A program made the position numbers and the translations under genes. Positions 9,905-35,510 of a stretch of 64,000 bases of DNA are shown here, in pieces. This DNA is from Candidatus Methylomirabilia bacterium (GTDB lineage Bacteria > Methylomirabilota > Methylomirabilia > Rokubacteriales > CSP1-6): contig JBGQLG010000004.1 in NCBI GenBank assembly GCA_041499965.1, positions 15,103-79,102 on the forward strand, written 5' to 3'. The notes beneath the pieces were generated by a model. It did no database searches. It worked only from the letters and a program-made list of their open reading frames with translations, and was not told where the DNA came from. Every line of letters starts with the position of its first letter. Position 1 is the stretch's first letter.

Positions 9905-12537
<2,633 letters not shown>

Positions 12538-12541
<4 letters not shown>

Positions 12542-13536: not shown

Positions 13537-13555
13537 CGACGAAGGAGGAGACGAA

Positions 13556-15567: not shown

Positions 15568-18258
15568 CTATGTTTTGGGGGTGACCTCGTCGAGGTCGTC
15601 GCGATCGTGGGTGATGGGCAGGGTGACCGTGAAGGTCGTGCCCTTCCCGAGCTCGCTCTGCACGTCGATCGTCCCGCCGTGGCTCTGCACGATGCCGAGG
15701 CTGACCGACAGGCCGAGACCGGTGCCGCTCACCTCCGGCTTGGTCGTGAAGAACGGATCGAAGATGCGACCCAGGATCTCGGCCGGGATGCCGGGCCCGG
15801 TGTCCTCGAAGGCGATCCTCAGCGTGCCGCCGTCGAGGCTGGTGCGGATCGTGAGCGAACCGCCGCCCTTCATCGCGTAGACGGCGTTGTTGATGATGTT
15901 GAGGAACACCTGCTTGATGCGCGACACGTCCATCTCGACCATCGGCAGGTCCTCGGCGTGCGCCTCGGTCACGGTGACCGCGTTCAGGGCGCCCTGGCGG
16001 CGGACCATCCCCACCACCTGCTCGATGACGGCGCTGACGTCGGACGGCTCGGGCATGAAGTCGCGCTGGCGACTGAACTGGAGCAGGTCGCGCACGATGT
16101 CACGCGCGCGCGAGGCCTCCTCCTGGATGAGGCCGAGCTCCTCGCGCATCGGGTCGTCGGCGGGCAGGCGTTCGGCGATGAACGAGGCGAAGCCCAGCAC
16201 GGTGGTGAGGGGATTGTTGATCTCATGCGCGATGTTGGCGGCCAGCTCGCCGATGGCGGCCAGCTTCGTGGACTGCACGAGCTGGGCCTGGGTCTGCTTG
16301 AGCTCGGCCATCTGTTGCTTGACGCCCTCGAACAGGCGCGAGTTCTCGATGGCCAGCGCGCCCTGCAGCGCGATGCCCTCGGCCAGCCGCAGCTCCTCGG
16401 CGGCGAAGCGATGGGCCTGGGTGAGCCACAGGATGGAGAATCCGCCGATCAGCTCGTCCTTCCAGAAGATCGGTTGGATGAGCATCGACTTGTGCTCCAC
16501 GACCTGCGAAGCCGCCATCCCGCTCCAGGCCTCGGCCTGGCTGTCGGAGGCGGCGATCGGCCCCTTGGCCGCCATCAGCGCGGTGACCACCGGATCGTCG
16601 AGCTTGAGGCTCGACGCCGCCGTCACGCCCAGGAGCTCCTTGGGAATGCGATAGCCGACCAGCGGCACGAAGCGCGCGCGGTCGGGCGCCAGCAGCCACG
16701 CGACGCCCATGTCGCCGCGGAGCGTGCGCACCATCTCGCGGGTGGCCCGACGGAGGATCTCGGTGAGATCGAGCGTGGAGCCGATGGCCTGGCTGACCGC
16801 CACTAGCGTCTCGTTGTACTGCAGGCGGCGCTGCGTCTCCTCGTACAGGCGCGCATTGCGGATGGCCACCGCGGCCGACGTCGCCAGGGCCTGGACCAGC
16901 GCGACCTCGTCGGCCCCGAACTCGCGGCGCTGACGGGAGAGGCCGACCAGCACGCCGACCGGTGCCTCCTCCAGCAGGAGCGGCACCGCGACGAGCGACA
17001 TGAGCCCCTCGGCTTGCGCCCACTGGCGCTCTTTGAGGCGTGGATCGACCGGCAGGTCGGCGATCACGAGCGGCGTCAGGTGCTCCATGACCCAGCCGAC
17101 GATGCCCTCGCCCGGCTCGAACCGCCCGCGCCGGTCGCCTGGCTGCTCGGCCAGCCCCGCCTGGGCGTGCAGCCGGTACTCGCCGGGACCCTCTTCGAGC
17201 CAGATCCGCACGACGTCCAGGTAGATGCGCGAGCGCACCAGCTCGGTGAAGCGCTGCAGGACGTCGGCGAGGCGCAGCGAGGAGGCCAGCAGGTGGCCGG
17301 CCTCGACGAGGCTCTGCTGCTCGGCCGCGCGCTGGGCGACGCCGTGGAACAAGCGGGCGTTCTCCACCGCGATGGCGACCTGGTTGGCCACGATGTTCAG
17401 CAGTTGCTCCTCGTCGGCCTTGGCGCCGGGCGGCAGGGTGTGGCGGGCCGTCATCACGCCGAGGGGCCGGCCCCGCACCGTGAGCGCCAGCGTCCAGTCG
17501 GCCTCGGCCCAGTCCTCGCCGGTGGCCAGGCCCGTCCCGGCCAGCACGCTGCGCGGCCGCTCGGTCTCGTCACCGGTCACCGCCACCTTGACGTCCGCGT
17601 CCGGCAGCTCGACGGACAGGCTGCGGGTGCCGAGCGCCTTGGACAGGGCCGGCAACAGCTGCTCGAGCATGGCGCGGGCGCCGACCTCGGAGGTGATGTC
17701 CTGCACCGCGCGGTGGAGATCGGCGAGCTGGGTGGCGCGGCGCACGAAGTGCTGGTTGAGGCGCTTGAGCTCCTCCACCTGATTGACCAGCCGGTAGACG
17801 AGGCGCTGGTTCAGCTCGCGGAGATAGACGCCTTGCTCGCGCTCCTCGACCTGCTCGCGCTTGCCGTGCAGGAATTCCTCGACCTGGCGGGGGAAGGTAT
17901 CGACGTCGATCGGTTTCTGGATATAGCCGTCGCACCCGGCCACCAGCGTGCGCTGGCGGTCGCCTTCCATCGCGTAAGCGGTCAGCGCGACGACCGGTGT
18001 GTTGGCGAAGGCTGGGAACGACTTGATGACCGCCACCACCTCGTAGCCGTCGATGCCCGGCAGGTTCACGTCGAGCAGGATCAGGGCCGGCTCCTCGCGC
18101 ACCGCCGCCTCGATGCCGGAGAGCCCGTCCTCGGCGTCGACGATCGTATAGCCGTCGGCCTCCATGATGGCGCGGACCAGCATGCGGTTCTCGGGGTTGT
18201 CCTCGATGTAGAGGATCTTGGGCTTCTTCCCGTCGCGGCGAATGATGGGAGCGGGCAT
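15568..18258 (-). CDS. hybrid sensor: N-terminal receiver - GAF x2 - HisKA - HATPase_c histidine kinase
   Basis: KILYIEDNPENRMLV...LLDVNLPGIDGYEV REC domain. IAHEINNPL H-box. GTGLGLS. Confidence 0.85.
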   Translation of the reverse strand: MPAPIIRRDGKKPKILYIEDNPENRMLVRAIMEADGYTIVDAEDGLSGIEAAVREEPALILLDVNLPGIDGYEVVAVIKSFPAFANTPVVALTAYAMEGDRQRTLVAGCDGYIQKPIDVDTFPRQVEEFLHGKREQVEEREQGVYLRELNQRLVYRLVNQVEELKRLNQHFVRRATQLADLHRAVQDITSEVGARAMLEQLLPALSKALGTRSLSVELPDADVKVAVTGDETERPRSVLAGTGLATGEDWAEADWTLALTVRGRPLGVMTARHTLPPGAKADEEQLLNIVANQVAIAVENARLFHGVAQRAAEQQSLVEAGHLLASSLRLADVLQRFTELVRSRIYLDVVRIWLEEGPGEYRLHAQAGLAEQPGDRRGRFEPGEGIVGWVMEHLTPLVIADLPVDPRLKERQWAQAEGLMSLVAVPLLLEEAPVGVLVGLSRQRREFGADEVALVQALATSAAVAIRNARLYEETQRRLQYNETLVAVSQAIGSTLDLTEILRRATREMVRTLRGDMGVAWLLAPDRARFVPLVGYRIPKELLGVTAASSLKLDDPVVTALMAAKGPIAASDSQAEAWSGMAASQVVEHKSMLIQPIFWKDELIGGFSILWLTQAHRFAAEELRLAEGIALQGALAIENSRLFEGVKQQMAELKQTQAQLVQSTKLAAIGELAANIAHEINNPLTTVLGFASFIAERLPADDPMREELGLIQEEASRARDIVRDLLQFSRQRDFMPEPSDVSAVIEQVVGMVRRQGALNAVTVTEAHAEDLPMVEMDVSRIKQVFLNIINNAVYAMKGGGSLTIRTSLDGGTLRIAFEDTGPGIPAEILGRIFDPFFTTKPEVSGTGLGLSVSLGIVQSHGGTIDVQSELGKGTTFTVTLPITHDRDDLDEVTPKT

Positions 18259-18268
18259 GGGGTGTCCT

Positions 18269-20413
18269 TTACCCCTGCGCCGGGGTCAGCGGCAGGGTGA
18301 AGTGAAAGGTCGAGCCCTGGCTCTCGCGGCTCTCCGCCCAGATCCGGCCACGATGCAGCTCGACGAACTTCTTGCTGATGGCCAGGCCGAGCCCGGTGCC
18401 GTCAGCCTGCTGAGCGAGCGGATTGTCCAGGCGCTGGAACGGCTCGAACAGCCGCTGCAGGTCGCCGGGCGAGATGCCGATGCCGGTGTCGGCCACGGAG
18501 ACGTGCAGGGCCTCGGGCTCGGGCCGGACCTGCACCAGCACGTGGCCGCTGTGCGTGAACTTGATGGCGTTGGAGAGCAGGTTGAGCAGCACCTGCTTGA
18601 CCCGCATGCGGTCAGCGTGGACCATCGGCAGCTCGACCGGCATGTCCTTTTCGATCTTCACGCGCTTGTCCCGGACCAGCGGCATCGAGGACTCGATGCA
18701 CTCCTCGACCACGTCGTGCAGGTCGAACTTCTCCGGACGCATCTCGAACTTGCCGGCCTCGATGCGGGAGAAGTCGAGGATGCTGTTGATCAGCTCCAGC
18801 AGGTGGCGGCTGGAGTTGTGGACGGAACGGACGTACGCCTCCTGCCGCTCCGTGAGGTCGCCGTCGAGACGGTTGAGCAGGACCTTGGAGAAGCCGATGA
18901 TCGAGTTCAGCGGGGTCCGCAGCTCGTGCGACATGTTGGCGAGGAACTGCGATTTGAGACGGCTGGCCTCGAGGAGGCGGGCGTTGGAGGTGGCCAGTCC
19001 CTCGTAGAGCCGCGCGTTCTCCAGCGAGATGGCGGCCTGGGTGGCCAGCAGCAGGAGGACCTCGAGCTCCTGGTCGTCGTAGATCTCGCCCGACAGCTTT
19101 TCGCCGAGGAGGAGGATCCCGTTGAGCTTGTTCTCGACCTTGAGCGGCACGATCAGCGCGGCCTTGACCGCTTCTAGCTCGCCCTCGGCCGTCTCGAAGT
19201 AGCGGGCGATGCGGGGGTTCAGCTTCACCTCTTCCTTGACCAGCAGTCCCTCGGTCGTGACCAGCCACTGAGCGATGGGGCTGTCGGCGCGGATCGACTC
19301 GATCCCCGAGCCCTCCTCGACCGTGGTGTCCTCCTGGTAGTTGACGAACGCACCGGTGGTGGGGTCGTGGATCATGAGCGTGGCGTGGGTGGCCGGGATG
19401 CCGCGCACCAGTCCGTGCACGAGCGTATCGACCAGCTCGTTGAAGTTCAGGATGGAGCTCATCCGCTTGCTGATCTGCAGCAGGGTCTCGTAGCAACCCT
19501 GCCGCTTGCTGAACATCATCCGCTGGATGCGGTCGTCGAGCCCCTGGCCCAGCGGCGACAGCAGCACCGTGATCACCGCCCCCACCGGCACGATCAGCCA
19601 CAGCGCGCTGGCTTCCTTCAGGTTGAAGTAGTCCTCGATCACCTTGGTGGCCACGCCGAGGACGAGCGTGATGACGGTGCCCACCAGCGCGTAGACGGCC
19701 GTCTTCTTCACCGCCACCGCCACCGCGAACAGGCGGTAGCGCACGATGGACGTGCCCAGCATGAGGGCGAAGATCATGTTGGCCGGAATGCCGACCGGAT
19801 AGACGTAGTCGGCGGCCGGCACGAATCGGCTGAGGATGAAGCGCGCGAAGTCGACCCAGCCACCGGCCAGGCTCACCAGGGTGCCGAGCATGATCAGCGT
19901 GCCGCGGTTGCGCCGGAAGCTGGAGTCGATGCCCCGGTGGTCCCGCACGAGGAGGATCACGCCGTAGATCATGAAGCCGTTGAAGGCGAGCAGGTACGGC
20001 AGGTACAGCGGGCCGGTCGCCGGCGCCCAGCCCCAGTGCGTGGCCTTCACGCCGCTCATGAACCACGGGGAGCCGGACAGGTTGATCAGCTCGTAGATGA
20101 AGGCCAACAGGTAGGCCAGGACCAGCGACGGTCGATGACGGGTCGTGCTGTCGAGGAAGATGAGGACGAAGTGGTAGTAGAAGGCCGGCAGCGCGATGAC
20201 GCCGATGTGGATGACGATCTCGACGAAGTAGGCGGTCCACTCGTCGGGGCTCGTGCGCAGGAGGAAGACGCCGAAGTTCCACAGCGCCATCCCGGACGCG
20301 AAATAGGCAAAGACGCGGTTGAGCCGACTCCCCGGGTTGCGCAGCAGCGACAATCCGGCCAGGGAGACGTTGAGGAAGAACGCTACGAGCGGGAGAAGAC
20401 TATGAGGGCTCAC
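18269..20413 (-). CDS. sensor histidine kinase with 7TM N-terminal module, GAF, HisKA, HATPase_c
   Basis: Seven hydrophobic helices. [11 protein letters not shown]-box. [10 protein letters not shown]. Confidence 0.85.
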
Positions 20414-21077
20414 GCCCGTTCCCCTCGGGCGGATCGAGAGGAAGGTAGACCTTGTCCTTCTGGCGCTGCGCTTCGATCTCCTCCTTGAGGATCCCGAAGA
20501 TCACCAGGTCCCAGTACCGTTCGCCGTCGAAGCCGGCCTGGCGGAGGATCCCCTCCTGCCGGAACCCGTTGCGCCGGAGGGAGTTCATGCTGAGCACGTT
20601 GTACTCGTAGACTTTGGCTTCGATGCGACGCAGGCCGAGCACGTCCACGCCATAGTAAGAAATGAGTTTACCTGCTTCGACCCCGAAACCCCGCTTCATT
20701 GCTCGCACGTCGGTGATGATCGTCTCCAGGAAGGCGTAACCCTCCAGCAGGTGGATGTTGAAGAGGCGCACCACCCCCACCGGTTTGGTCCAGCCCCGGT
20801 GGGCCTCGATGACCAGCACGATCTGGGTGGGATCGGTCAGGACCGCCTCGAAGAAGGCCGGCGACTTGTCCCACACATGCTTGTAGGACTGCAAGAACTC
20901 GCTGCCGACCATGCGTTCGAGGAACGGGTCGTCGACCCACGCGGAGAGATGGTCGAGATCTGCCGGCGTGAATGTCCGGAGATAGACCCTGGTGCCGCGG
21001 GAGATGACGCTGCCGCGCTCGCGGGGCGGCGTCGATTGGGAGGGGGCGTCAGGCCCCTGGTGCTCCACCGAGATCAC
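20400..21077 (-). CDS. GNAT family N-acetyltransferase (RimJ/RimL-like)
   Basis: VRLFNIHLLEGYAFLETIITD, RGFG, LRRIEAKVYEYNVLSMNSLRRNGF. Start placed at the GTG overlapping the STAS stop rather than the ORF-track start at 21140. Confidence 0.65.
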   Translation of the reverse strand: MISVEHQGPDAPSQSTPPRERGSVISRGTRVYLRTFTPADLDHLSAWVDDPFLERMVGSEFLQSYKHVWDKSPAFFEAVLTDPTQIVLVIEAHRGWTKPVGVVRLFNIHLLEGYAFLETIITDVRAMKRGFGVEAGKLISYYGVDVLGLRRIEAKVYEYNVLSMNSLRRNGFRQEGILRQAGFDGERYWDLVIFGILKEEIEAQRQKDKVYLPLDPPEGNGREPS

Positions 21078-21430
21078 ATTCCGGGACCGGTCCAGAGCGC
21101 GAAGGCGGTGATCGTCCCCGTGTCCTTGAGCGCCCGGCACACCACGTCATTGGCGCGCAGCGCCAGCGTGCCACTGGGCTGTGCCTCGAGCACACGACGC
21201 GCTTCGAGCAAGGCCGCGATGCCGGCCGCGTCCAGCGCCGTCACCGCTCGCAGGTCGATCACCTGGCGCGTCCGGCCATCAGCCACGGCCTGCCGGATCT
21301 GTGCGCGCAACGCCGGGGCCGTCACGGCAGTGAGGGGACCGGCGAGTCGGAGCCGTTCCGGACCGGTCGTGGTCCGGTCGGCTGCCGGCGTCGCCGTACC
21401 CTCGTGCATCCCCGCATCGACGGCGCTCAT
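21074..21430 (-). CDS. STAS-domain protein (anti-sigma-factor antagonist-like)
   Basis: 118 aa. LRLAGPLT...IDLRAVTALDAAGIAALL, SpoIIAA-like. Confidence 0.65.
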   Translation of the reverse strand: MSAVDAGMHEGTATPAADRTTTGPERLRLAGPLTAVTAPALRAQIRQAVADGRTRQVIDLRAVTALDAAGIAALLEARRVLEAQPSGTLALRANDVVCRALKDTGTITAFALWTGPGM

Positions 21431-21445
21431 GGTCAGGAGCGTTTC

Positions 21446-22204
21446 CTAGAAGTCGATATCAAAGCGGACGAGCGGAGCACCCAGCGACAGCTCGTTCGGC
21501 TGGATGTCCAGGCAGCGGCCGGCCGGGGTCCCCGCCGCCTCGACGTTGTCGAGGTAGGCAAGGTCGACACCGCCGTAGAGCGCCGCTGCGTAGGGGTTCG
21601 GGTTCGGGGTCAACGGGCAGAAGATCTGGCGCAGGGTCAGCTTCATCTTCACTCCGGGCGCGACCTCGACCTCGGTCTCGAAGTTGCCCGCGAAGGGCAG
21701 CCGGAAGACGCCCGTGAAATTGCGATTGCGGCCCCGGTCCGCCTTCACCTTGCCGACGACGGTGCCGAACGGGATGTCGTGCAGGATCGCCGGCGAGAAA
21801 TCCATCTGCCCGTGGAACTCGCCCTTGAGCACCACGGCCTCCGGCCCGTCCACGGGGTTGTCACCCTGGATGACCGTCGCGAAGTTGCCATCGAGCGTGC
21901 CCAGGCCGGTGGTGAGACTGACGTTGTCACTGCCGAGCACGTTGACCGCGCAACCGGCCGGACCGCTCTGCAGATCCGCGCTCGGGCACAGCGGCGTCCC
22001 GGGCACGGCCACACCGGTGATCGCCGAGGTGGCGAGGCGACGGGCGACCGGCGGACGATGCCGTTGATTCCTCTGCACCAGCTTCATGTTCTCGGTCAGC
22101 TCATAAAGGGTCGCGTCGCTCGCACGGGCCAGGGCCGGCGCGCTAGCAACGGCGACACCCACCAATCCCAGAATGGCGACGATCCGCTTTGATGTCGGCT
22201 TCAT
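21446..22204 (-). CDS. secreted hypothetical protein
   Basis: MKPTSKRIVAILGLVGVAVASAPALARA signal peptide. No recognisable domain. Confidence 0.5.
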   Translation of the reverse strand: MKPTSKRIVAILGLVGVAVASAPALARASDATLYELTENMKLVQRNQRHRPPVARRLATSAITGVAVPGTPLCPSADLQSGPAGCAVNVLGSDNVSLTTGLGTLDGNFATVIQGDNPVDGPEAVVLKGEFHGQMDFSPAILHDIPFGTVVGKVKADRGRNRNFTGVFRLPFAGNFETEVEVAPGVKMKLTLRQIFCPLTPNPNPYAAALYGGVDLAYLDNVEAAGTPAGRCLDIQPNELSLGAPLVRFDIDF

Positions 22205-22433
22205 CTTGCTCTCCGTTCTCCGCGCTCCAACGTCGCTCGCCGGTGCGAGGCTTCAATGGCCCGCTTGGGCGGGATCAACTACTACAGCAAGCTCAGTACC
22301 AAACTACGCGACCGATCCATAACCTATTGGGAATAAAGATAAGATTGCCTCAGGCGCCCCCTCAAACTGCGGTCTCCCGGGTGATTCCTTAACGACTGAT
22401 CAGGTCGAGGTGACACGAACGGCGAGAAACTGA

Positions 22434-23255
22434 TCAGCCCCTGGACTCGCGCTCAGGATTGGCGACCCGCACCCACGCCAGGAGGCTGATTCCAGCCAGG
22501 AACGTCTCGCGGCGCTCGAGAATCTCGAACCCCGCGGCGCGGAGGACGGCATCGAACTGCTCGCGGTTCAGATAGCGGGGACGGACGCCCCGGAACGCGT
22601 CGAAGAGTGCGGTCGGGAGCAGCCAGCGCAGCGCGCGAATCGCCGCCCACCAGCCGCGCCGGCGCCGGACCTCGGCGAACGTGCGCAGGACGTGCGCTCG
22701 GCGCGCGTAGGTGAGGAACACGATGTGGCCGCCCGGCTTGAGGGCGCGTCGGCAGGCGGCCAGCAGGGCGGCGGGGTCCGGGTGCCAGTAGAGCGTGTGC
22801 ATGCTGACGAGCACGTCGAAGCCGCCACCGGCCGGCGTCGCGTCGCGCGCGAGGTCGGCATGCTGGAAACTCAACGACAGGTCGGTATCACGATGATGAC
22901 GCCGGGCGACGTCGACGAGATGCTGCACCGCATCGACCCCGACGACCGTCCAGCCCCGCCGGGCGAGACGTGCGGCCACCGTGCCGATGCCGCACGATAC
23001 ATCCAGTACGCGCGTGGCCGCCGGCGCACCCGGCCGCGCTCCGCGCTCGACCAGCCCGATGACCTCGTCGACGAGCGCTTCGTAGGGCTGGAACCCGCGG
23101 ACGATCGCGTCGTAGGTGAGACCGTAGCCGACGGCGATCAGCCGTTCAACCGCGGGCTGGAACGGCATGTGCGCCCCCGTGGCTCCACCGACCGGAGGAG
23201 CCAGCAGGCCCGTGGAGGCCGGCGATGCCGCCGAGCCGGAAGACTTGCGCCCCAC
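22434..23255 (-). CDS. class I SAM-dependent methyltransferase (paralog 2)
   Basis: VLDVSCGIGTVAARLARRGWTVVGVD motif I. LKPGGHIVF. Confidence 0.8.
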   Translation of the reverse strand: MGRKSSGSAASPASTGLLAPPVGGATGAHMPFQPAVERLIAVGYGLTYDAIVRGFQPYEALVDEVIGLVERGARPGAPAATRVLDVSCGIGTVAARLARRGWTVVGVDAVQHLVDVARRHHRDTDLSLSFQHADLARDATPAGGGFDVLVSMHTLYWHPDPAALLAACRRALKPGGHIVFLTYARRAHVLRTFAEVRRRRGWWAAIRALRWLLPTALFDAFRGVRPRYLNREQFDAVLRAAGFEILERRETFLAGISLLAWVRVANPERESRG

Positions 23256-23258
23256 GGG

Positions 23259-24062
23259 CTACGCCTCGCTCTCCTTCTTGGCCAGCACCAGAACGCTGGC
23301 GCCGTTGAGGAAGGTCCGCCGTGTCTCGAGGACGGTGAATCCGGCCGTCCGCAGGTTGGCGCCGAAGGTCGTCTCGTTCCAGTAGTGCGGGCCGACCCGG
23401 CGTCGGGTCGCCTCGAACAGCCAGTGCGGGAACAGCCAGAGCAGCAGGCAGCGCAGTGCCGCGGCCGTTCCCTCGGCCTGGCGTAGCTCCTGGAACGTGG
23501 CACGCGGGCGGACCGCACCGGTGTGATTGACGAAGATCGCGTGGCCGCCGGGCTTGAGCACGCGCCACGCGTGAGTGAGCACGGCCTGGGGATCGGCATG
23601 CGCGTAGAGGGAATGGACGTTCACGACCTGGTCGAACGATCCGTCGCGCAGCGTCGCGGTCGGCAGGTCACCCTGCGTGAACGCGAGATTGGCCAAGCGC
23701 TTGGCCCGGCGCTTCTCTCGCGCGAGTTCGACCAGCGCGCCATACGGTTCGAGGCCGAGCACCGAAAAGCCAGCCTCGGCCAGTACGAACGTGAGATTGC
23801 CAGGACCGCAGCCCACGTCGAGCACCTGGAACGCGCGCCGGTCAGGCGAGGTGGCCTTGGCCGCCGTCTCCACCAGCTCCAGCACCTCGGCCTGCAGCCG
23901 CTGGTAAGGGGCGAACTGCTCGAAAATATAGTCGTACACGAGCCCGTAGCCGATCGACAGCATCCGGTCGATCGTCCACTGGAACCCGCCCTGCAGAGAC
24001 CCCATGACCACCTCCGCCGGGACCGGGGCATCGGCGTGCGCGCTGGTCCGTGGGTGCATCAT
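23259..24062 (-). CDS. class I SAM-dependent methyltransferase (paralog 1)
   Basis: VLDVGCGPGNLTFVLAEAGFSVLGLE. LKPGGHAIF. Shares an N-terminal IGYGL.YD block with the adjacent gene. Confidence 0.8.
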   Translation of the reverse strand: MMHPRTSAHADAPVPAEVVMGSLQGGFQWTIDRMLSIGYGLVYDYIFEQFAPYQRLQAEVLELVETAAKATSPDRRAFQVLDVGCGPGNLTFVLAEAGFSVLGLEPYGALVELAREKRRAKRLANLAFTQGDLPTATLRDGSFDQVVNVHSLYAHADPQAVLTHAWRVLKPGGHAIFVNHTGAVRPRATFQELRQAEGTAAALRCLLLWLFPHWLFEATRRRVGPHYWNETTFGANLRTAGFTVLETRRTFLNGASVLVLAKKESEA

Positions 24063-24071
24063 AGCCTCCCG

Positions 24072-24449
24072 TCAGGCGCGATCCGCCAGGACCTTCTCCA
24101 CAGTCCCGCGCAGCTCGTCGGACGTGAACGGCTTGAGGAGAATCGCGTGAAAACCCATGCGGTTGGCTTCATCGATGATCTCGGGGGTGCCGTGACCTGT
24201 CACCAGCACCACGGCCATGCCGGGGTGCAGCGTGCGGGCCTGCTGAAAGACCTCGAACCCGGTCATCCCGGGCATCTTGTAGTCGAGGACCATCAAATCG
24301 AATGGTTCTTTTCGCATCAACTCCACTGCGGTCTCGCCGCGGTTGGCGCCCTTGACGGCGTACCCGAGCGCCTGGAGGACGTTGACGCACAGGACGACGA
24401 CCGGACCGGCGTCGTCGACGATCAGGATCTTGGTCTTGGCCGGGCTCAA
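24072..24449 (-). CDS. single-domain response regulator (CheY-like)
   Basis: ILIVDD...LMVLDYKMPGMTG...LLKPF. Confidence 0.85.
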   Translation of the reverse strand: MSPAKTKILIVDDAGPVVVLCVNVLQALGYAVKGANRGETAVELMRKEPFDLMVLDYKMPGMTGFEVFQQARTLHPGMAVVLVTGHGTPEIIDEANRMGFHAILLKPFTSDELRGTVEKVLADRA

Positions 24450-26044
24450 TTCGCCTGGGCCAACGCAGGCGAGTCGGTCGCGCTGCCGCTCGTGAGCGTT
24501 TCGTAGTGCCGGGTGATCTCTTCCAGACGCTCCAGCGGGACCCTGAGGAAAGCCTCGACCACCGCCGGGTCGAAGTGCGAGCCGACGCCGCGCGAGATCT
24601 CCTCGCGGGCCTCACCCAGCGCGAGCGCCGTGCGATACGGCCGGTTCGAGGTGATCGCGTCGAAGACGTCGGCTACCGTGACCACCCGCGCGACGATCGG
24701 GATGTCCTCAGCCCGCAGGCCGTCGGGATAGCCGGTGCCGTCCCACCGCTCGTGGTGGTGACGGACCGCGCACGTCTCGCGGGCCAGGAATCGCAGGGGC
24801 TCGAGGATCTTGGCCCCGACCACCGGGTGGCTCTTGATGATCGTGAACTCCTCGGCGGTGAGCCGCTCGGGTTTCCGCAAGATCGTGTCCATGATGGACA
24901 GCTTGCCGAGGTCGTGCAGCATCGCCCCCCGCCGGACCACTTCCACCATCTCCAGCGTCATGCCCATCGTCTGCGCGATCTCGGCGGCGTAGAGCGCCAC
25001 CCGGGCGGAGTGACCCTTGAGGTACCGGTCCTTGGACTCGATGGCGTTGACGAAGGCCGTGATGGTGTCGACGAGGTTGCGCTCGACGTTCTCGCGCAAG
25101 ATCAGCTTTTGCAGCGCCACGGCCGTGCTCTGGGCGTAGCCCAGCAGCATGTCGCGCTCGTCCGGCAGGAAACCGCCGGTGGTCGCCTCGCGGGCGAGGC
25201 ACACGATGCCCATGGTGTGCCCCACCCCGGGGATGACGGCCGCCATCGCTTCGAGCGGCTCGCCGGCGATGGTGACACCGAGCGTCTCGCGTCTGCCGCC
25301 GGCGACCATATCCTCGAATGACCGCTGCAGTGACGTCAGCAGCCGCGTCACCAGCGGGCCGGCGCCCTGCTGGCTGCAGCCGAAGGCGCCCTGCTCGTCG
25401 CGCAGGAGCACGAGGGCCGCGTCGCTCTTGATGCTCTGTCCGATCAGGCCGAGCACCTCGTCCATGAACGCCGAGGTCTCGAGCCCCTGTAGGGCCAGGT
25501 CGCCGATGCGGAACATCACCTCCACGCCGGACTGCCGGCGCGACAGCTCCTCCGTGAGCCCGGCCGGCAACGGCACCTGGCCGTCCCACTTCAGACGGTC
25601 GGCCCGGATGCGCACCAGCAGCTCCTGGACCTCGCGGATCGAGAAGGGCTTCGGCAAGTAGTCGTAGGCGCCGTGGCGCAGGCCAAAGACCGCCGAGTTG
25701 ACCGAGGGGTTGCCGGTGATGAGCACGACCGGTGTCGCCGGCTGCTTGCCCTTCACCGCGCGGAGCAGATCCAGGCCCGACAGCCCCGGCATTTTGATGT
25801 CGGACACGACGAGATCGAAGGCGTGCGCGGTGATCAAGGTCAGCGCCTGCTCGGCGGCTGCGGCCTGCGTCACCGTGCACCCGTTGGCCGAGAAGGCCGA
25901 GACGAGAAAGCGCAACAGCGACGCGTTGTCGTCGACCACGAGGACTCGGAGGACCTCGGGGGCGACGGCGCTCGGAGAAACCGCGGGCATGGGCACCAGT
26001 CCTCCTACTTGGCGGCCGACATCTGGCTGAGGAACTCCATCCAC
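24446..26044 (-). CDS. response regulator with HD-GYP c-di-GMP phosphodiesterase output
   Basis: VLVVDDN...DIKMPGLSG REC domain. HD-GYP: LHDLGK and HHERWDGTGYP. ATGA overlap with the CheY gene. Confidence 0.85.
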   Translation of the reverse strand: MDGVPQPDVGRQVGGLVPMPAVSPSAVAPEVLRVLVVDDNASLLRFLVSAFSANGCTVTQAAAAEQALTLITAHAFDLVVSDIKMPGLSGLDLLRAVKGKQPATPVVLITGNPSVNSAVFGLRHGAYDYLPKPFSIREVQELLVRIRADRLKWDGQVPLPAGLTEELSRRQSGVEVMFRIGDLALQGLETSAFMDEVLGLIGQSIKSDAALVLLRDEQGAFGCSQQGAGPLVTRLLTSLQRSFEDMVAGGRRETLGVTIAGEPLEAMAAVIPGVGHTMGIVCLAREATTGGFLPDERDMLLGYAQSTAVALQKLILRENVERNLVDTITAFVNAIESKDRYLKGHSARVALYAAEIAQTMGMTLEMVEVVRRGAMLHDLGKLSIMDTILRKPERLTAEEFTIIKSHPVVGAKILEPLRFLARETCAVRHHHERWDGTGYPDGLRAEDIPIVARVVTVADVFDAITSNRPYRTALALGEAREEISRGVGSHFDPAVVEAFLRVPLERLEEITRHYETLTSGSATDSPALAQAN

Positions 26045-27450
26045 TGCCGCGTCAGCACACCGTCGTTCGGGAACTTCAGCCCTTCGAAGCCCTGCGGCAG
26101 CGCGGGCGACGCCGGCTTGGCGTCGGCGGCCGCGCGCTCACGGGAGGCCGTCGCCGGGGCGGCCAGCGCAGACTCGAGTACCAGCGCCGGCGGCTCCACG
26201 GGCTTGACGCGCTCCTCGATCACCACCGCCGGCACGATCGCCTTCGGCTCCTCGACCGGCTCGGGAATGCGCGGCTCAAGCATGAGCTCCAGGGGCGCGG
26301 TCACGATCGGCTCGGCGGCCAGGGCCTCGACGGCGGCCTCGAGGACGAGCGGCTCGGCGAGGGTCGGCGCGGTCGCCACGGTGGCCACCGCCTCGTTGAG
26401 GGCGACCTGGGTCGCGGTCGTGGCGCCGAGCAGCGCGGTCGCGAGATCCTTGAACGACACCCGCTCGGGAGCCGGGGCGGTGGCGGTCACCACGTGCGCC
26501 GGCGCGATCGCTGGCACGGCATCCAGTACCGGACGCGCCGGCGGCGCCGGGATCTCCGGCAGTGCCAGCGGCTCGATCGTGGCCTCGGGCTCGATCGAGA
26601 GTTCCAGGGTCTCCACCGCGTCGGCCAGCGATACGATCGGGTCCGGCGCCGCGGCGACGAGAGCTTCGACGACGGGCTCGGCCATCAGCGGCTCCGGCTC
26701 GCGCAGCATCACCGGCTCGGCCGCCGGGCGCGGGCGCTCGGTCCACGGTGCCGTGACGACAGCCTGTCGGCTGACCATGCTGACCACGGGCGCCGGCTCA
26801 CGCGACGGGACCACACGTTCGGCGGCGCGGGGCCCGCCGGTGGGCGCGTCGGGGCTCGCCTGCGTGAGGAGCTTCTGGATCTTGGCGCCGGTCGCGCGCG
26901 CGGCAGCGCCGTTCATCGTGATGACGTTCTCGGCGGCTGGGCCCGTCAGCGAGTCCGGGTCGACCATGCGGGCGCTGGCCGGAACGACAGCCCGGCGGAG
27001 CCGTAGGAGCGACTCGAAGTAGACCGCGGGAACGCCGTCGAACTCCAGGTGGCGGAACTCCACGCAGTCGACCTCGGGGAAGCCGAGCTGCTTGATCTTG
27101 CGGTGGAAGGCGTCAGGCATGCGCTCGACCACGAAGAGCAAGCGCGGCGGCCGGTCCTCCGACACCTGGCAGCTTGGGTAGAGCCGCACCAGCGCCTCGG
27201 GATACTCCAGGCACCACGAATAGGCCTCAACGGCCTTCATGAGCATCTCCTCGTTCGCGGTGAATCCGACTGCGCCCAGCACGAGTGCGCCAACGGCGTC
27301 GACGCCGATCACGTCGATCGTCGCGTGCCCCAGCAGCAGGCGTGCGTCGAGGACGGTGAGGCCGGGCTCGATGGCGTCGAAGTTCTCGACGACCAGTGCC
27401 TGCAGCTTGGCGGCATCCTCGATTCGCAGTTTCCTGATCCCCACTCTCAT
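26005..27450 (-). CDS. hypothetical protein: N-terminal NucS/DUF91-like nuclease-fold domain lacking catalytic E-x-K, followed by a long Pro/Glu/Ala/Val-rich low-complexity region
   Basis: ATG at complement of 27450 is preceded by GAGGAG. LQALVVENFDAIEPGLTVLDARLLLGHATIDVIGVDAVGALVLGAVG follows the NucS pattern (ENxxxIExGL...IDLxxxDxxGxxVVIELK) with ELK replaced by GAV. The ORF-track start at 27528 is unlikely. Confidence 0.6.
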   Translation of the reverse strand: MRVGIRKLRIEDAAKLQALVVENFDAIEPGLTVLDARLLLGHATIDVIGVDAVGALVLGAVGFTANEEMLMKAVEAYSWCLEYPEALVRLYPSCQVSEDRPPRLLFVVERMPDAFHRKIKQLGFPEVDCVEFRHLEFDGVPAVYFESLLRLRRAVVPASARMVDPDSLTGPAAENVITMNGAAARATGAKIQKLLTQASPDAPTGGPRAAERVVPSREPAPVVSMVSRQAVVTAPWTERPRPAAEPVMLREPEPLMAEPVVEALVAAAPDPIVSLADAVETLELSIEPEATIEPLALPEIPAPPARPVLDAVPAIAPAHVVTATAPAPERVSFKDLATALLGATTATQVALNEAVATVATAPTLAEPLVLEAAVEALAAEPIVTAPLELMLEPRIPEPVEEPKAIVPAVVIEERVKPVEPPALVLESALAAPATASRERAAADAKPASPALPQGFEGLKFPNDGVLTRQWMEFLSQMSAAK

Positions 27451-27511
27451 CGCTTTTGGCTCCTCACTCAGATGGGCCGGTCGCCCCGGCTCCGTTCGGA
27501 CCCGGAGAGAG

Positions 27512-27527
27512 AGCAAAGGGGGTACCA
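27512..27527 (-). promoter_or_regulatory. candidate sigma-54 promoter (-24/-12): TGGTAC-N5-TTGCT on the minus strand
   Basis: Reverse complement of 27512-27527 is TGGTACCCCCTTTGCT. GG and GC are spaced as in TGGCAC-N5-TTGCW, with one mismatch. Lies about 60 nt upstream of ATG 27450 and just downstream of the sigma-54 activator gene. Confidence 0.55.
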
Positions 27528-27660
27528 AAGCAGACTGTGACGGACAACCCCAGGAGGGACAAAGCTTTTTGGAGCAGAACGGGGAGGGGCGAGGAGGACA
27601 GGATGGGTGATTCGTGTCCGCCCACGCCAGGTTTTCGTGGGGGGTGTGGCCAGAAACGGG

Positions 27661-29019
27661 TCAGGCTAGGGGGGTGGCTTCCGTCAGCTTCTTGCGCAGG
27701 GTCTGCCGCGTGATTCCGAGGATCTTGGCGGCCTCGCTCTTGTTCCCGTTGGCCTGCCGCAGCACCTTGAGGATGTAAGCGCGCTCGACAGCCTCCAGGG
27801 TCCGGGGCTCGCGGGAAACTTCTTCCGGCAAGGGGCCATCTGTTGCCGCCGCGAACGGCACCGGCATCTGGTCGGCCTCGATCGTGTCGCCTACGCTCAG
27901 GATCACCAGGCGCTCGATCAGGTTCTTGAGCTCGCGCACGTTGCCCGGCCACCCGTAGGCCAGCAGGAGTGACTCCGACTCCGTCGCCAGGCGCTTGACG
28001 GCCTTGTGAAAGGTGCTGTTGGCCTCGGCCAGGAAATGACGCGCCAGGGGCAGGATGTCCTCCCGGCGCTCGCGCACCGGTGGGATCGTGAGCGGGATGA
28101 CGTTCAGCCGGTAGAAGAGGTCCTCGCGGAACTTGCCCTCCTTCACCATCGTCTCGAGGGATCGGTTGGTGGCGGCAATCACCCGGACGTCGACCTTGAG
28201 GTCGCGGGTGCCGCCGACGCGCTTGAAGGTCCGCTCTTGCAGGCAGCGGAGCAGCTTGGCTTGGCTGGCCAGCGGGATCTCACCGACCTCGTCCAGGAAG
28301 AGCGTGCCGCCGTCCGCCAGCTCCATGAGGCCCTTCTTCGTGCTCTTGGCGTCGGTGAAAGCGCCCTTCTCGTGGCCGAAGATCTCGCTCTCGAACAGCG
28401 TCTCCGTGATCGCGGCGCAGTTGACCTCCATGAACGGCGAGTTGCGGCGGGCGCTCTCGTAGTGCAGCCCACGGGCGACCAGCTCCTTGCCGGTGCCGCT
28501 CTCCCCCTGCACGAGGATCGTGTGCGCCTCGCTCTGGGCCAGCTGCGTGATCACTTCGCGAAGCCGGCGAGTCGACGTCGACTCCCCGACGATCTGGTTC
28601 GTCCGGTACTTTCCCTCCTGCAGGCCTTGCAGCCGGGTGATCTCGCGGCGCGCCTTCACCTCGTCGAGCGCCCGGGTGACCGTGATACGCAGTTTCTCCA
28701 GATGCTGGAACGGCTTCTCGAGGTAGTCGGTAGCGCCGTTCTTCATGGCGATCACGACGCTTTCGATGTGACCGAAGGCGGTGATCATGATGACCGCGGT
28801 CTGCGGGTGCCGCGCGCGCATCTCCCGCAGGACCTGGATCCCGTCGATGTCGGGCAGGCGCAGGTCGACGAGGGCCACGTCGGGCTCCACCTGGTCGGCG
28901 ATCTCCAGCCCGTCCTTGCCGGTGCCGGCGGTGTGGACCTCGATGTTGTCCTGCCCGAGGACGCGGGATACCAGAGAACGAATGTTGCGCTCATCGTCGA
29001 TCACGAGGACTGAATTCAT
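27661..29019 (-). CDS. sigma-54-dependent Fis-family response regulator (NtrC-like: REC-AAA+-HTH)
   Basis: GESGTGKE Walker A. ESELFGHEKGAFTDA (GAFTGA-type). C-terminal Fis-type HTH (EAAKILGITRQTLRKKL). Confidence 0.9.
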   Translation of the reverse strand: MNSVLVIDDERNIRSLVSRVLGQDNIEVHTAGTGKDGLEIADQVEPDVALVDLRLPDIDGIQVLREMRARHPQTAVIMITAFGHIESVVIAMKNGATDYLEKPFQHLEKLRITVTRALDEVKARREITRLQGLQEGKYRTNQIVGESTSTRRLREVITQLAQSEAHTILVQGESGTGKELVARGLHYESARRNSPFMEVNCAAITETLFESEIFGHEKGAFTDAKSTKKGLMELADGGTLFLDEVGEIPLASQAKLLRCLQERTFKRVGGTRDLKVDVRVIAATNRSLETMVKEGKFREDLFYRLNVIPLTIPPVRERREDILPLARHFLAEANSTFHKAVKRLATESESLLLAYGWPGNVRELKNLIERLVILSVGDTIEADQMPVPFAAATDGPLPEEVSREPRTLEAVERAYILKVLRQANGNKSEAAKILGITRQTLRKKLTEATPLA

Positions 29020-29163
29020 GACTGGATCGATTGTAGCCGAACCGGGCCCCCGTTAAGAAACCTACCATGTGGTAATGAAATTCCCGGGTCGTACCACCCA
29101 TCACTGAGCCGGCAATGACCTGTAAACGCCAACATATCAAGACATATTTGCCGAAAACACCTA

Positions 29164-29180
29164 TGGCACGGCTCTCGCTT
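29164..29180 (+). promoter_or_regulatory. candidate sigma-54 promoter TGGCACG-N4-TCGCT upstream of the GAF-GGDEF gene
   Basis: Perfect -24 TGGCAC with the GC dinucleotide at the correct -12 spacing (TCGC versus consensus TTGC). Only about 15 nt before ATG 29195, so it would be leaderless or the true start lies downstream. Confidence 0.4.
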
Positions 29181-29194
29181 GACGAAGTGCTCCG

Positions 29195-30274
29195 ATGACT
29201 GATCTGCCGACGGGTCGATCCAGAGACGAAGCACGAGTGGCGACCGAGCGCCTCAAGCAGCTCATCGCCATCGGCATCGCGCTGACCAGTGAGCGCGAAC
29301 TGTCGAAGCTCCTCGAGCGGATCGTCGGCGAGGCCCGGCGCTTCGCCAACGCCGAGACCGGCGCCCTCTTCCTTCGTGACGGCGACGCGCTGCGCTTCGC
29401 CGTGGCGCAGAATGACGGGCTGCTCGAGCGCCTGGGCGAGCGCGAGATGCGGCGCCACTTCGCTGCCGAGCCGCTCACGCTCGCCCAGCCGAGCCTGGCC
29501 GGTTACGTCGCGCTGACCGGTCGTCTGGTCAACCTCCCCGACAGCGACGAGGCGCTGCAGGACCAGCCCTACGCCTTCAACCGCGAGCTCGACGCCCTGT
29601 TTCGGTACCAGACAGGCTCGGTGCTCGTGGTTCCGCTCCAGGAACCCAAGGGCGAGGTGATCGGCGTGCTGCAGCTCGTCAACGCGCGCAACGACCACGG
29701 CGAGGTCGTGCCCTTCGAAGCCGAGCTGGAGGGCCTGGTCCAGGCGCTCGCCTCCCAGGCCGCGGTGGCCATCCGCAACGCCCGGCTCGAGGAACTGTCG
29801 TTCAAGGATCCTCTCACCGGCGTCTACAACCGTCGGCACTTCGCGCTCCGCATCGAAGAGGAGGCCAGGCGCCACGCCCGCTTCGGCGAGCCGCTCTCGC
29901 TGGTCCTTCTCGACCTCGACCGCTTCAAGCAGATCAACGACGAGCTGGGGCACGCGGCCGGCGACGACACGCTGCGCGAGTCGGCCCAGCTCATCGTGGC
30001 CAACTCGCGCAGCTTCTCGGTCGTGACCCGCTACGGCGGCGACGAGTTCGCGGTGCTCCTCGTCAACACGCCCAAGGCCGGCGCCGTCAAGTACGCGCGC
30101 CGCATCAAGGACGTGATCGAGCGCCATCGGTTCGTGCACGGACCGCTCACGGTCAGCGTGGGGATCGCCGCGCTGCCCGAGGACGTGACGCACAGCGCGG
30201 ACCTCGTGCCGGCGGCGGATCGCGCACTCTACGCGGCCAAGCGTCTCGGCCGGAATCTCATCGAAGTCGCATAG
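29195..30274 (+). CDS. GAF-domain diguanylate cyclase (GAF-GGDEF)
   Basis: LDLDRFKQIND, RYGGDEF, LYAAKRLGRN. Confidence 0.85.
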   Translation: MTDLPTGRSRDEARVATERLKQLIAIGIALTSERELSKLLERIVGEARRFANAETGALFLRDGDALRFAVAQNDGLLERLGEREMRRHFAAEPLTLAQPSLAGYVALTGRLVNLPDSDEALQDQPYAFNRELDALFRYQTGSVLVVPLQEPKGEVIGVLQLVNARNDHGEVVPFEAELEGLVQALASQAAVAIRNARLEELSFKDPLTGVYNRRHFALRIEEEARRHARFGEPLSLVLLDLDRFKQINDELGHAAGDDTLRESAQLIVANSRSFSVVTRYGGDEFAVLLVNTPKAGAVKYARRIKDVIERHRFVHGPLTVSVGIAALPEDVTHSADLVPAADRALYAAKRLGRNLIEVA

Positions 30275-32694: not shown

Positions 32695-32713
32695 CGGTAT
32701 ACTTCGAGCACCG

Positions 32714-34192
32714 ATGGTCACCCTCACCCCCGACCGCAAATCCGCGCTTCGCCGCGAGCTGGCCGCCATCGTCGGCCCCGGCGGCGTGCTGTCCGAGCCG
32801 GACGAGCTGCTCGTCTACGAGTCGGACGGGCTGACGCTGCTGCGGGCCCTGGCCGATTTCGTGGTCTTCCCCACGGCGGCCGAGCACGTGGCGGACATCG
32901 TGAAGCTGGCCAACCGCGAGCGGCTGCCGTTCGTGGCTCGCGGCGCCGGGACCGGGCTGTCGGGCGGCTGCCTGCCGGCCGAGGGCGGCATCGTGATCTC
33001 GATGATGCGCATGAACCGCGTCCTCGAGGTCGACTACGACAACCAGATCGCCGTCGTCGAGCCGGGGCTGGTCAACCTGCACCTGTCGTGGGCGGTCGGC
33101 CCCCGCGGCTTCTACTACGCGCCGGACCCGTCGAGCCAGCAGGCCTGCACCATCGGCGGCAACATCGCCAACAACTCGGGCGGCCCCCACACGCTGAAGT
33201 ACGGCGTCACCGTGAACCACGTGCTCGGCCTCGAGGTCGTGATGCCCGAGGACGGCAGCATCGTGTGGCTGGGCGGCCGCACGCGCGACCCGCTCGGCTA
33301 CGATCTGCCCGGCCTCTTCGTCGGGTCGGAGGGCACCTTCGGCATCGCCACCAAGATCGTCGTGCGCATCCTCCGCAAGCCCCAGGCGGTGAAGACGGTG
33401 CTCGCCGTCTTCGATCAGGTCGAGCACGCCTCGGCGGCCGTCTCGGCGATCATCGCGCGCGGCCTGGTGCCGGCGGCGATCGAGATGATCGACCACCTGA
33501 CGATCCAGGCCGTCGAGGACGCCTTCGGCTGCGGCTATCCGCGCGACGCGGCCGCCGCGCTGCTGATCGAGGTCGACGGCCTCCGCGCGGGCCTGGACGC
33601 CCAGGCCGATCGCATCGAGGCGGCCTGCCGCGAGTCGGGCGCGCGCGACGTGCGGACGGCGGCTGACGAGGCCGAGCGCCAGCTCTTGTGGAAGGGACGC
33701 AAGTCGGCGTTCGGCGCCTACGGCCGGGTGTCACCCGCCTACATGGTGATGGACGGCGTCATCCCGCGCACCAAGCTGCCCTATGTGCTCGGCCGCGTGA
33801 ACGAGATCGTGGCCGCCCACGGTCTGCGTGTCGGCAACGTGTTCCACGCCGGCGACGGCAACCTGCATCCGAACATCCTCTACGATCCGCGCAAGCCGGG
33901 CGAGGAAGCGCGCGTGGTGCAGGCCGGCGCCGAGATCATGAAGGTCTGCGCCGAAGTCGGCGGCTCGATCTCGGGCGAGCACGGCATCGGACTGGAGAAG
34001 TCCGACTTCATGCCGTTCATCTTCTCCGCCGCCGATCTCGAGTTCATGCAACGGCTCAAGACCGCGTTCAACCCGAACGGTCTCTGCAACCCGGGCAAGG
34101 TCTTCCCGACGAAGAAGTCCTGCGTCGAGGTGGGGCCGGTCGCCTATCGGCCGCACACGATCGAAGAACAGGGCCTCGCGCAGCGCTTCTGA
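32714..34192 (+). CDS. glcD: FAD-linked oxidase, glycolate oxidase subunit GlcD-like
   Basis: FAD-binding PCMH domain (RGAGTGLSGG). Start set at ATG 32714 after the E1 stop. TATACT lies 10 nt upstream. Confidence 0.8.
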   Translation: MVTLTPDRKSALRRELAAIVGPGGVLSEPDELLVYESDGLTLLRALADFVVFPTAAEHVADIVKLANRERLPFVARGAGTGLSGGCLPAEGGIVISMMRMNRVLEVDYDNQIAVVEPGLVNLHLSWAVGPRGFYYAPDPSSQQACTIGGNIANNSGGPHTLKYGVTVNHVLGLEVVMPEDGSIVWLGGRTRDPLGYDLPGLFVGSEGTFGIATKIVVRILRKPQAVKTVLAVFDQVEHASAAVSAIIARGLVPAAIEMIDHLTIQAVEDAFGCGYPRDAAAALLIEVDGLRAGLDAQADRIEAACRESGARDVRTAADEAERQLLWKGRKSAFGAYGRVSPAYMVMDGVIPRTKLPYVLGRVNEIVAAHGLRVGNVFHAGDGNLHPNILYDPRKPGEEARVVQAGAEIMKVCAEVGGSISGEHGIGLEKSDFMPFIFSAADLEFMQRLKTAFNPNGLCNPGKVFPTKKSCVEVGPVAYRPHTIEEQGLAQRF

Positions 34193-34203
34193 GCGGAATC
34201 GCC

Positions 34204-35508: not shown

Positions 35509-35510
35509 GC

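Follow-up and report, generated by a model that had tools for sequence, protein, structure and literature searches.

Does a gene for a sigma-54 activator, followed by a promoter of the matching type and a short run of signalling genes, make up a regulatory module by itself, or is it one part of a larger unit? The question is raised by a stretch of 64,000 nucleotides (here called the window) from contig JBGQLG010000004.1 of a Candidatus Methylomirabilia bacterium, which has a G+C content of about 70% and encodes proteins identical or near-identical to those of Rokubacteria/Methylomirabilota metagenome-assembled genomes. A first-pass annotation of the window had described an NtrC-type activator gene, a sigma-54 element and, behind it, five genes (27450 to 22434) for a catalytically dead NucS-like protein, an HD-GYP response regulator, a CheY and two S-adenosylmethionine (SAM) methyltransferases, and had taken these for a self-contained module. 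The features were all found where it had placed them, with Pfam in agreement for the activator, the HD-GYP protein, CheY, the two methyltransferases and a divergent GAF-GGDEF gene; no description of this Rokubacteria cluster or gene combination was found in the literature searched, in keeping with its remark that the combination was not a described one. The self-containment did not survive, as the cluster continues through a second conserved promoter into five more genes which include two histidine kinases. Judged by gene content and order, the five genes are the upstream half of a signalling island of about 14.7 kb (15568-30274) which is a fixed feature of the Rokubacteria (Methylomirabilota), and the unit is one of 12 genes with three putative sigma-54 promoters (P1, P2 and P3) rather than five genes with one. 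The best explanation, to which we assign a probability of roughly 60%, is that this island is an NtrC-type two-component sigma-54 regulon with positive feedback.

Extent and conservation of the signalling island

The GAF-GGDEF diguanylate cyclase gene (29195..30274, plus strand; Pfam GAF and GGDEF, NCBIfam GGDEF domain 169 bits) has an intact GGDEF motif and is divergent from the gene for the NtrC-family activator (27661..29019, minus strand, as are those that follow), in which Pfam recognizes REC, Sigma54_activat, AAA_lid_14 and HTH_8 domains. Next come the genes for the dead-NucS-like protein (26005..27450; 481 amino acids, characterized by fold search and alignment), the REC-HD-GYP response regulator (24446..25990; 514 amino acids, Pfam Response_reg and HD_5), a CheY-like single-domain receiver (24072..24449; a single REC domain in Pfam) and the Pfam-assigned class I SAM methyltransferases MT1 (23259..24062) and MT2 (22434..23255), the latter a paralogue with 43% identity to MT1. 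The downstream half specifies an exported, beta-rich protein of 252 amino acids with a signal peptide and four conserved cysteines (21446..22204), a STAS-domain protein of the anti-sigma antagonist type (21074..21430; Pfam, with NCBIfam below cut-off), a GNAT acetyltransferase (20400..21077; Pfam Acetyltransf_3), a HisKA_7TM-GAF-HisKA-HATPase sensor kinase (18269..20413; Pfam) and, as the last gene of the cluster, a REC-GAF-GAF-HisKA-HATPase hybrid kinase (15568..18258; Pfam). A convergent glucokinase gene, ending at 15462, marks the end of the cluster. The CheY start overlaps the HD-GYP stop by 4 nt; the 40-nt overlap of the HD-GYP gene with its predecessor, counted from a GTG at 26044, is probably not real. 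Since gene callers start this protein in relatives at the equivalent of ATG 25990, which lies 14 nt after the preceding stop, the longer version is probably a longest-open-reading-frame artefact.

A pattern scan with one genome per species revealed relatives of the dead-NucS-like protein in 23 loci, all of them from the Rokubacteria/Methylomirabilota, and synteny was followed by tblastn with the window proteins in those loci which are long enough to show gene order. The order of the five genes proved to be conserved, and with it that of the remainder: every such locus reads activator, dead-NucS-like protein, HD-GYP, CheY, MT1, MT2, exported protein, (STAS), GNAT, 7TM kinase and hybrid kinase, the STAS gene being variable or absent in relatives. 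In 13 loci the neighbouring divergent gene is GAF-GGDEF. Among the Rokubacteria loci the activator is 75-95% identical, the 7TM kinase 72-93% and CheY mostly 72-94%, the activator and kinases taken together ranging from 72 to 95%; the dead-NucS-like and exported proteins are more variable.

Genomic context was also obtained for five kinds of distant-relative locus. L029/L030, in which the N-terminal domain of the dead-NucS-like protein has 48% identity, carry a compact cluster composed of activator, dead-NucS-like protein, REC-HD-GYP, CheY, one methyltransferase, GNAT, 7TM-GAF kinase and REC kinase, with a P1-type motif (TGGTACCACCCTTGCT) upstream of the dead-NucS-like gene; the activator and kinases of L029 remain 68-69% identical to their counterparts. 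The single methyltransferase of L029 is 59% identical to MT1 versus 45% to MT2. Since it is nearer to MT1, the second methyltransferase, the exported protein, STAS and P2 appear to have been added within the Rokubacteria, with MT1 the ancestral copy and MT2 a lineage-specific duplicate. The GNAT, by contrast, belongs to the conserved core.

Putative sigma-54 promoters and their upstream boxes

P1, a sigma-54 -24/-12 element with the sequence TGGTACCCCCTTTGCT (27512..27527, minus strand), is situated in the 210-bp gap after the activator gene, 61 nt before the ATG at 27450, in good agreement with the first-pass estimate of about 60 nt. P2 (TGGTACTGAGCTTGCT; 22286..22301, minus strand), which together with the genes behind it was absent from the five-gene account, lies in the 229-bp gap between MT2 and the exported-protein open reading frame and faces the latter. 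P3 (TGGCACGGCTCTCGCT; 29164..29179, plus strand) ends 15 nt before the GGDEF ATG and is the weaker element which had been noticed facing that gene. Each of the three matches 10 of the 11 consensus bases, P3 having TCGCT at -12. The exact pattern TGGYAC-N5-TTGCW is matched twice in the 64 kb, by P1 and P2, as compared with 0.04 matches expected, and both are intergenic and gene-facing.

The three elements are retained in relatives. In every one of 21 loci a P1 element agreeing with the consensus at 9 or more of its 11 bases stands at the orthologous place, 42-65 nt ahead of the start codon, and P2 is likewise present in 19 of 19. The GG-N10-GC of P3 is kept in 11 of the 13 loci having the GGDEF neighbour, and its spacing to the start codon is constant (14-15 nt) in the six loci where the start codon aligns. 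When 374 kb of related loci were scanned for elements agreeing with the consensus at 10 or more of its 11 bases, 45 were obtained, of which 38 fall at P1, P2 or P3. Locus L015 (6153-8880) contains two MT1-like genes and two further TGGTAC-N5-TTGCT motifs (7049, 8864) after the usual P1; judging from this arrangement, the cluster has been rearranged or expanded there.

Upstream of P1 is a pair of boxes 33 nt apart, box A (GTTTCTGGCC) and box B (GAATCACCC), which we regard as a candidate enhancer (27605..27657, minus strand). A corresponding pair, GTTTCTCGCC and GAATCACCC, precedes P2 (22379..22430, minus strand) with the same offset to the TGG of the -24 element. The window contains exactly two copies of the composite GTTTCTNNCC-N(20-45)-GAATCANCC, at these two positions (27605-27657 and 22379-22430), versus 0.00 expected; the A-N32/33-B form is likewise confined to the regions upstream of P1 and P2, and ends 77 nt before the -24 TGG at both. 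Measured from the T of TGG, at both promoters and across loci, the first base of box B (GGAATCA) lies between -84 and -89 and that of box A (GTTTCT) for the most part between -128 and -131, the offsets holding within about 3 nt. In alignments of the sequences upstream of P1 and P2 the boxes stand out as two conserved blocks, and an A/T-rich stretch similar to the IHF consensus separates them from the promoter; at P2 of the window this stretch is TTCCCAATAGGTTAT (22319..22333, minus strand), with conserved TCAA-N4-TTR columns. In its spacing the arrangement is the classical NtrC-type enhancer layout, and it is consistent with binding of boxes A and B by the adjacent activator and with a role for IHF at the A/T-rich block.

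The gap of 229 bp with its own promoter, which parts MT2 from the next gene, could be taken to mean that the five genes from 27450 to 22434 are after all a self-contained sigma-54 operon and that the genes beyond 22434 are an independent adjoining unit, P2 answering another signal. We consider this rather unlikely, given that P2 has the same pair of boxes at the same offset as P1, that the pair is found nowhere else in the 64 kb, and that the genes downstream of 22434 are syntenic in every locus. In L029, moreover, the GNAT and kinase genes come directly after the methyltransferase gene with no second promoter motif, and the five-gene unit would possess three receiver proteins and no kinase. 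Nothing resembling a terminator was found from P1 to the end of MT2.

The leader downstream of P2 has one or two GC-rich stem-loops (22235..22273, minus strand), beginning about 10 nt after the predicted start. When the sequences were folded individually, a hairpin appeared at the same place across L005-L027 with stems of different sequence (e.g., CCCGC/GCGGG, GTCCCCG/CGGGGAC, GCCGCC/GGCGG), which suggests that a 5' structure is conserved here and serves mRNA stability or protein binding. RNAalifold gave no consensus structure for this leader, the hairpins being misaligned, and Rfam revealed no known RNA between 21000 and 30500, the leader included.

The region shared by the activator and GGDEF genes was examined in an alignment of 11 loci. 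It contains a conserved, box B-like block, CGTTAAGAAA..ACCA.GTGGTAA.GAA (29050..29088, plus strand), upstream of P3, and an invariant GGCTACAATCG (29028..29038, minus strand; 100% conserved columns) which includes TACAAT and lies 10 nt before the activator ATG. The former is a candidate activator-binding site common to P3 and the activator's own promoter; the TACAAT could be the -10 box of a sigma-70 promoter giving a near-leaderless activator mRNA. The activator may therefore both drive P3 and modulate its own sigma-70 promoter from this region. Since P3 ends 14-15 nt before the GGDEF start, a near-leaderless mRNA is implied for that gene too, and both divergent genes are near-leaderless in appearance (29164-29197, 29017-29038).

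Adjacency of an activator gene is not in itself proof of control, and the large genomes of Rokubacteria probably encode many such activators. P1 to P3 could then be true sigma-54 promoters which respond to an enhancer-binding protein from some other part of the genome, the adjacent activator having other targets. What makes this improbable in our estimation is that P1 is preceded by the activator gene without exception, both in the 21 loci and in L029, and that box B-like boxes also occur in the activator-GGDEF intergenic region. The three putative promoters appear to be switched on by the activator which the cluster itself encodes.

The proposed circuit and the enzymes it would control

In the autoregulated regulon which we favour, the 7TM-GAF kinase, the REC-GAF-GAF hybrid kinase or both would phosphorylate the NtrC-type activator; of the candidates, these two histidine kinases most likely drive it. 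The activator would bind box A (GTTTCT, at about -130) and box B (GGAATCA, at about -86 from the -24 TGG) and, aided by an IHF-like bend, would open sigma-54 holoenzyme at the three promoters. P1 would drive the presumably co-transcribed genes for the dead-NucS-like protein, REC-HD-GYP, CheY, MT1 and MT2; P2 those for the exported protein, STAS, GNAT and both kinases; and P3 that for GAF-GGDEF, on a near-leaderless mRNA. Since the kinases are behind P2, and since read-through from P1 may also reach them in the apparent lack of a terminator between P1 and P2, the circuit would be positively autoregulated. The induced products would reset the turnover of cyclic diguanylate (c-di-GMP), with the cyclase gated by its GAF domain and the HD-GYP phosphodiesterase by phosphorylation, and the CheY-type receiver, methyltransferase and GNAT would act on a further target.

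The activator is well supported as a member of its class (Pfam Response_reg 2.8e-28, Sigma54_activat 2.1e-70, HTH_8 1.1e-14). Its translation contains the DD pair, an acceptor aspartate at D52 and the Walker A sequence GESGTGKE, and all of its orthologues have the Walker A motif, a GAFTDA loop and HTH_8. Its NCBIfam scores fall below the cut-offs for AtoC (482 versus 714 bits), NtrC (437 versus 559) and ZraR (379 versus 760); indeed, none of the regulators, kinases, methyltransferases or GNAT reached an NCBIfam equivalog cut-off. The HD-GYP protein (Pfam HD_5, 1.1e-38) has intact LHDLGK and HHERWDGTGYP signatures, and scores 216 bits against the NosR-family model, below its cut-off of 400. Since these signatures and the GGDEF motif of the cyclase are intact, both enzymes are probably active.

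Less can be said of the methyltransferases. MT1 and MT2 match Methyltransf_11, 23 and 25 with E-values of 1e-19 to 7e-23 and contain the SAM motifs VLDVGCGPG and VLDVSCGIG. Their best NCBIfam scores are below cut-off (UbiG 68/103, CpaM 55/180, DVU_1556 52/155), and by the curated cut-offs they are none of the UbiG, UbiE, CpaM, DVU_1556, BioC or PmtA equivalogs. Relatives in the Protein Data Bank (PDB) are generic class I enzymes, so that the resemblance to small-molecule, lipid or peptide methyltransferases appears to be a generic one. The top 120 matches of a homology search with MT1 were all close Rokubacteria orthologues and had no bearing on substrate. Tandem methyltransferases of the glycine-betaine type were considered, and no tool result supported them. 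Together with the dead-NucS-like protein, the methyltransferases are candidate effectors of the circuit. The exported protein belongs to no known family in Pfam or NCBIfam.

Several points weigh against the regulon proposed here. The sigma-54 contact loop of the activator (residues ~212-224) is GAFTDA as opposed to GAFTGA, the F and T being kept and the second Gly replaced by Asp; GAFTDA is invariant in all 27 activator-encoding sequences, that of the distant L029 included. In the window boxes A and B are imperfect as dyads, and at P1 the IHF-like block is degenerate. P3, at only 15 nt from the ATG, would require leaderless translation, and the pairing of the kinases with the regulator is assumed from adjacency alone. 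An RpoN-box peptide was not found in the available sequence, which is not the whole genome, and the presence of sigma-54 is implied only by the activator. The AlphaFold model of the exported protein, built from an alignment of close orthologues, is poor (pLDDT 55), and Foldseek returned nothing for it below E = 0.27. Lastly, the mechanism is one proposed from sequence for uncultured organisms.

As regards known systems, the regulation is of a familiar kind, that of an enhancer-dependent sigma-54 regulon; what appears new is the gene combination and an undescribed protein family. With NtrB-NtrC and the enhancer-dependent promoters of the glnAp2 paradigm (AtoC, ZraR and other NtrC-family regulators) the cluster shares a REC-AAA+(sigma-54 interaction)-HTH_8 activator, the canonical -24 GG/-12 GC spacing, paired upstream sites at a distance of about 100-150 nt from the start, and an A/T-rich IHF-like block separating these sites from the promoter. 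At glnA, activator-type boxes overlap the activator's own sigma-70 promoter, and the cluster is putatively alike in this. By contrast with these systems, the cluster's activator is orthologous to no named regulator and has the GAFTDA loop, its presumed kinases are of the 7TM-GAF and REC-GAF-GAF types, and its targets are signalling enzymes and lineage-specific proteins rather than genes of nitrogen assimilation. PilS-PilR pairs a multi-pass membrane kinase, which has no large periplasmic domain, with a sigma-54 activator; the cluster resembles it in this and in having an exported protein as one target, and differs in that it lacks genes for pilin or a pilus, possesses a second hybrid kinase, which is soluble, and has c-di-GMP enzymes within the regulon. 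The REC-HD-GYP protein is comparable to RpfG and PA4781, in which a receiver is likewise fused to an HD_5 domain with its HD and GYP residues and activation by phosphorylation is presumed; by contrast it has about 170 extra residues between REC and HD-GYP and a putative sigma-54 promoter, and is encoded together with CheY, methyltransferases and a dead-nuclease protein. The Rokubacteria, which are abundant in soil and have large genomes, are uncultured, and to our knowledge almost nothing is known of their regulation. The cluster is among the most conserved signalling loci seen in this analysis and, its cis-regulatory logic being readable from the sequence, its promoters, boxes and proteins could be rebuilt in a heterologous host.

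The dead-NucS-like protein, its family and the flanking genes

The dead-NucS-like protein consists of a conserved N-terminal domain (residues 1-155), a Pro/Ala/Glu/Val-rich linker of variable length with a few short conserved motifs, and an invariant C-terminal motif, PQGFEGLKFPNDGVLTRQWMEFLSQMS. AlphaFold, given an alignment of 57 sequences, modelled the N-terminal domain alone with confidence (pLDDT 80-90); helices are predicted at residues 333-357 and 468-479 and the rest is disordered. In two fold searches the predicted domain matched the nuclease domain of NucS/EndoMS, with NucS the best match, placing a NucS-C-like PD-(D/E)xK domain at residues ~10-145. The catalytic residues of EndoMS, D165, E179 and K181, correspond to D46 and positions 60 and 62 in an alignment with a paralogue of the protein which is weak (E = 0.49) and not significant alone. 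At these positions the window protein has Asp (D46), Ala (A60) and Gly (G62). In the family Gly62 is nearly invariant, position 60 is occupied by Ala, Thr, Asn or Gly, Glu remaining in one paralogue, and both D46 and D51 are invariant. The fold searches and the residue-level alignment are thus in agreement with the catalytically dead N-terminus described in the first-pass annotation, and support a predicted NucS-type fold which has lost the catalytic Glu and Lys.

Searches of the protein and its distant relatives against Pfam, NCBIfam and PDB sequences yielded nothing significant; for the protein itself Pfam, at E ≤ 10, gave nothing except DUF2378 at 0.077. Because it has no N-terminal DNA-binding domain, no match to PF01939 and no ExK motif, we do not regard it as a member of the NucS family. 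In its predicted structure it shares with NucS/EndoMS (PDB 2vld, 5gke) the C-terminal RecB-like nuclease fold of those enzymes. The differences extend further: the nuclease-like domain begins at about residue 10, where NucS would have the N-terminal DNA-binding domain as defined in PMC5290159, a disordered linker of 300 residues follows, and the C-terminal motif does not fit the clamp-binding consensus. A clamp-binding (PIP-box) reading of that motif was rejected, QWMEFL having Glu where this consensus needs a hydrophobic residue. The phylum is one without reported NucS (PMC5290159). Three Cys are conserved in the dead-nuclease domain (residues 80, 94 and 129), of which C129 is invariant and also retained by most of the distant relatives; these residues may have a redox or metal role.

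A PD-(D/E)xK fold with NucS as its best match, two invariant aspartates and a pair of methyltransferase genes following a nuclease-like gene might bring to mind a NucS-like nuclease which is still active, or an island for defence or restriction-modification. We hold this to be very improbable. The equivalents of E179 and K181 are Ala and Gly, the latter nearly invariant in the family as noted above, and the DNA-binding domain is missing. MT1 and MT2 are of the Methyltransf_11/23/25 small-molecule types and not DNA methyltransferases. PADLOC has no model for the nuclease-like protein, gave no match for it or for the exported protein, and matched only its generic methyltransferase and HD models elsewhere in the cluster; the cluster is, furthermore, chromosomal, syntenic and vertically conserved. 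Within the regulon as we propose it, the dead-NucS-like protein would most likely serve for binding or as a scaffold, without catalysis, its disordered linker offering the conserved helical motif at the C-terminus to a partner, for which CheY or the REC proteins of the operon are candidates.

Among 1.84 billion representative proteins, a search with the N-terminal domain matched 424 clusters with E ≤ 1e-3. Their distant members (34-48% identity) have in common this domain, the disordered linker and at least one G.L..(Q/E)W(R)xFL motif; none has a Pfam match, and one subfamily carries an extra C-terminal domain of about 90 residues. Stand-alone paralogues with such an extra domain, itself without a Pfam match, are found in L031 (1191-1546) and L032 (8929-9001). 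The L031 paralogue has a perfect TGGCACACCGGTTGCT 15 nt before its start and a divergent GAF-GGDEF gene with its own sigma-54-type motif, and that of L032 has TGGCTCGAGACTTGCT 57 nt upstream; no sigma-54-type motif was found upstream of the family member in L028. One may speculate, though we think it on the unlikely side, that these proteins (424 clusters at 50% identity, with no Pfam model) are a new family of sigma-54-regulon components in which the disabled domain binds nucleic acid or a nucleotide signal and the repeated G.L..QW(R)xFL helix docks receivers (CheY, REC-HD-GYP) or the activator, so providing a feedback scaffold. Such a scaffold would link phosphorelay, c-di-GMP turnover and enhancer-dependent transcription. 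The analysis adds, at any rate, an undescribed protein family apparently derived from the NucS nuclease domain, with catalysis lost, which recurs behind putative sigma-54 promoters, and it would be an example of a repair-nuclease fold recruited into signalling.

Beyond the GGDEF gene the window encodes an E1-type transketolase-family protein (30418-32694) and then FAD-linked oxidase genes (window 30418-36000). In L001/L002 (1-7100) the FAD-linked oxidase genes run on in the same order into a GlcD/E/F-like set (FAD_binding_4, Fe-S/CCG) and MoCF_biosynth, so that synteny reaches beyond the signalling cluster. On the other flank are the genes for FBPase, a DeoC-type aldolase and the glucokinase (12496-15462, plus strand).

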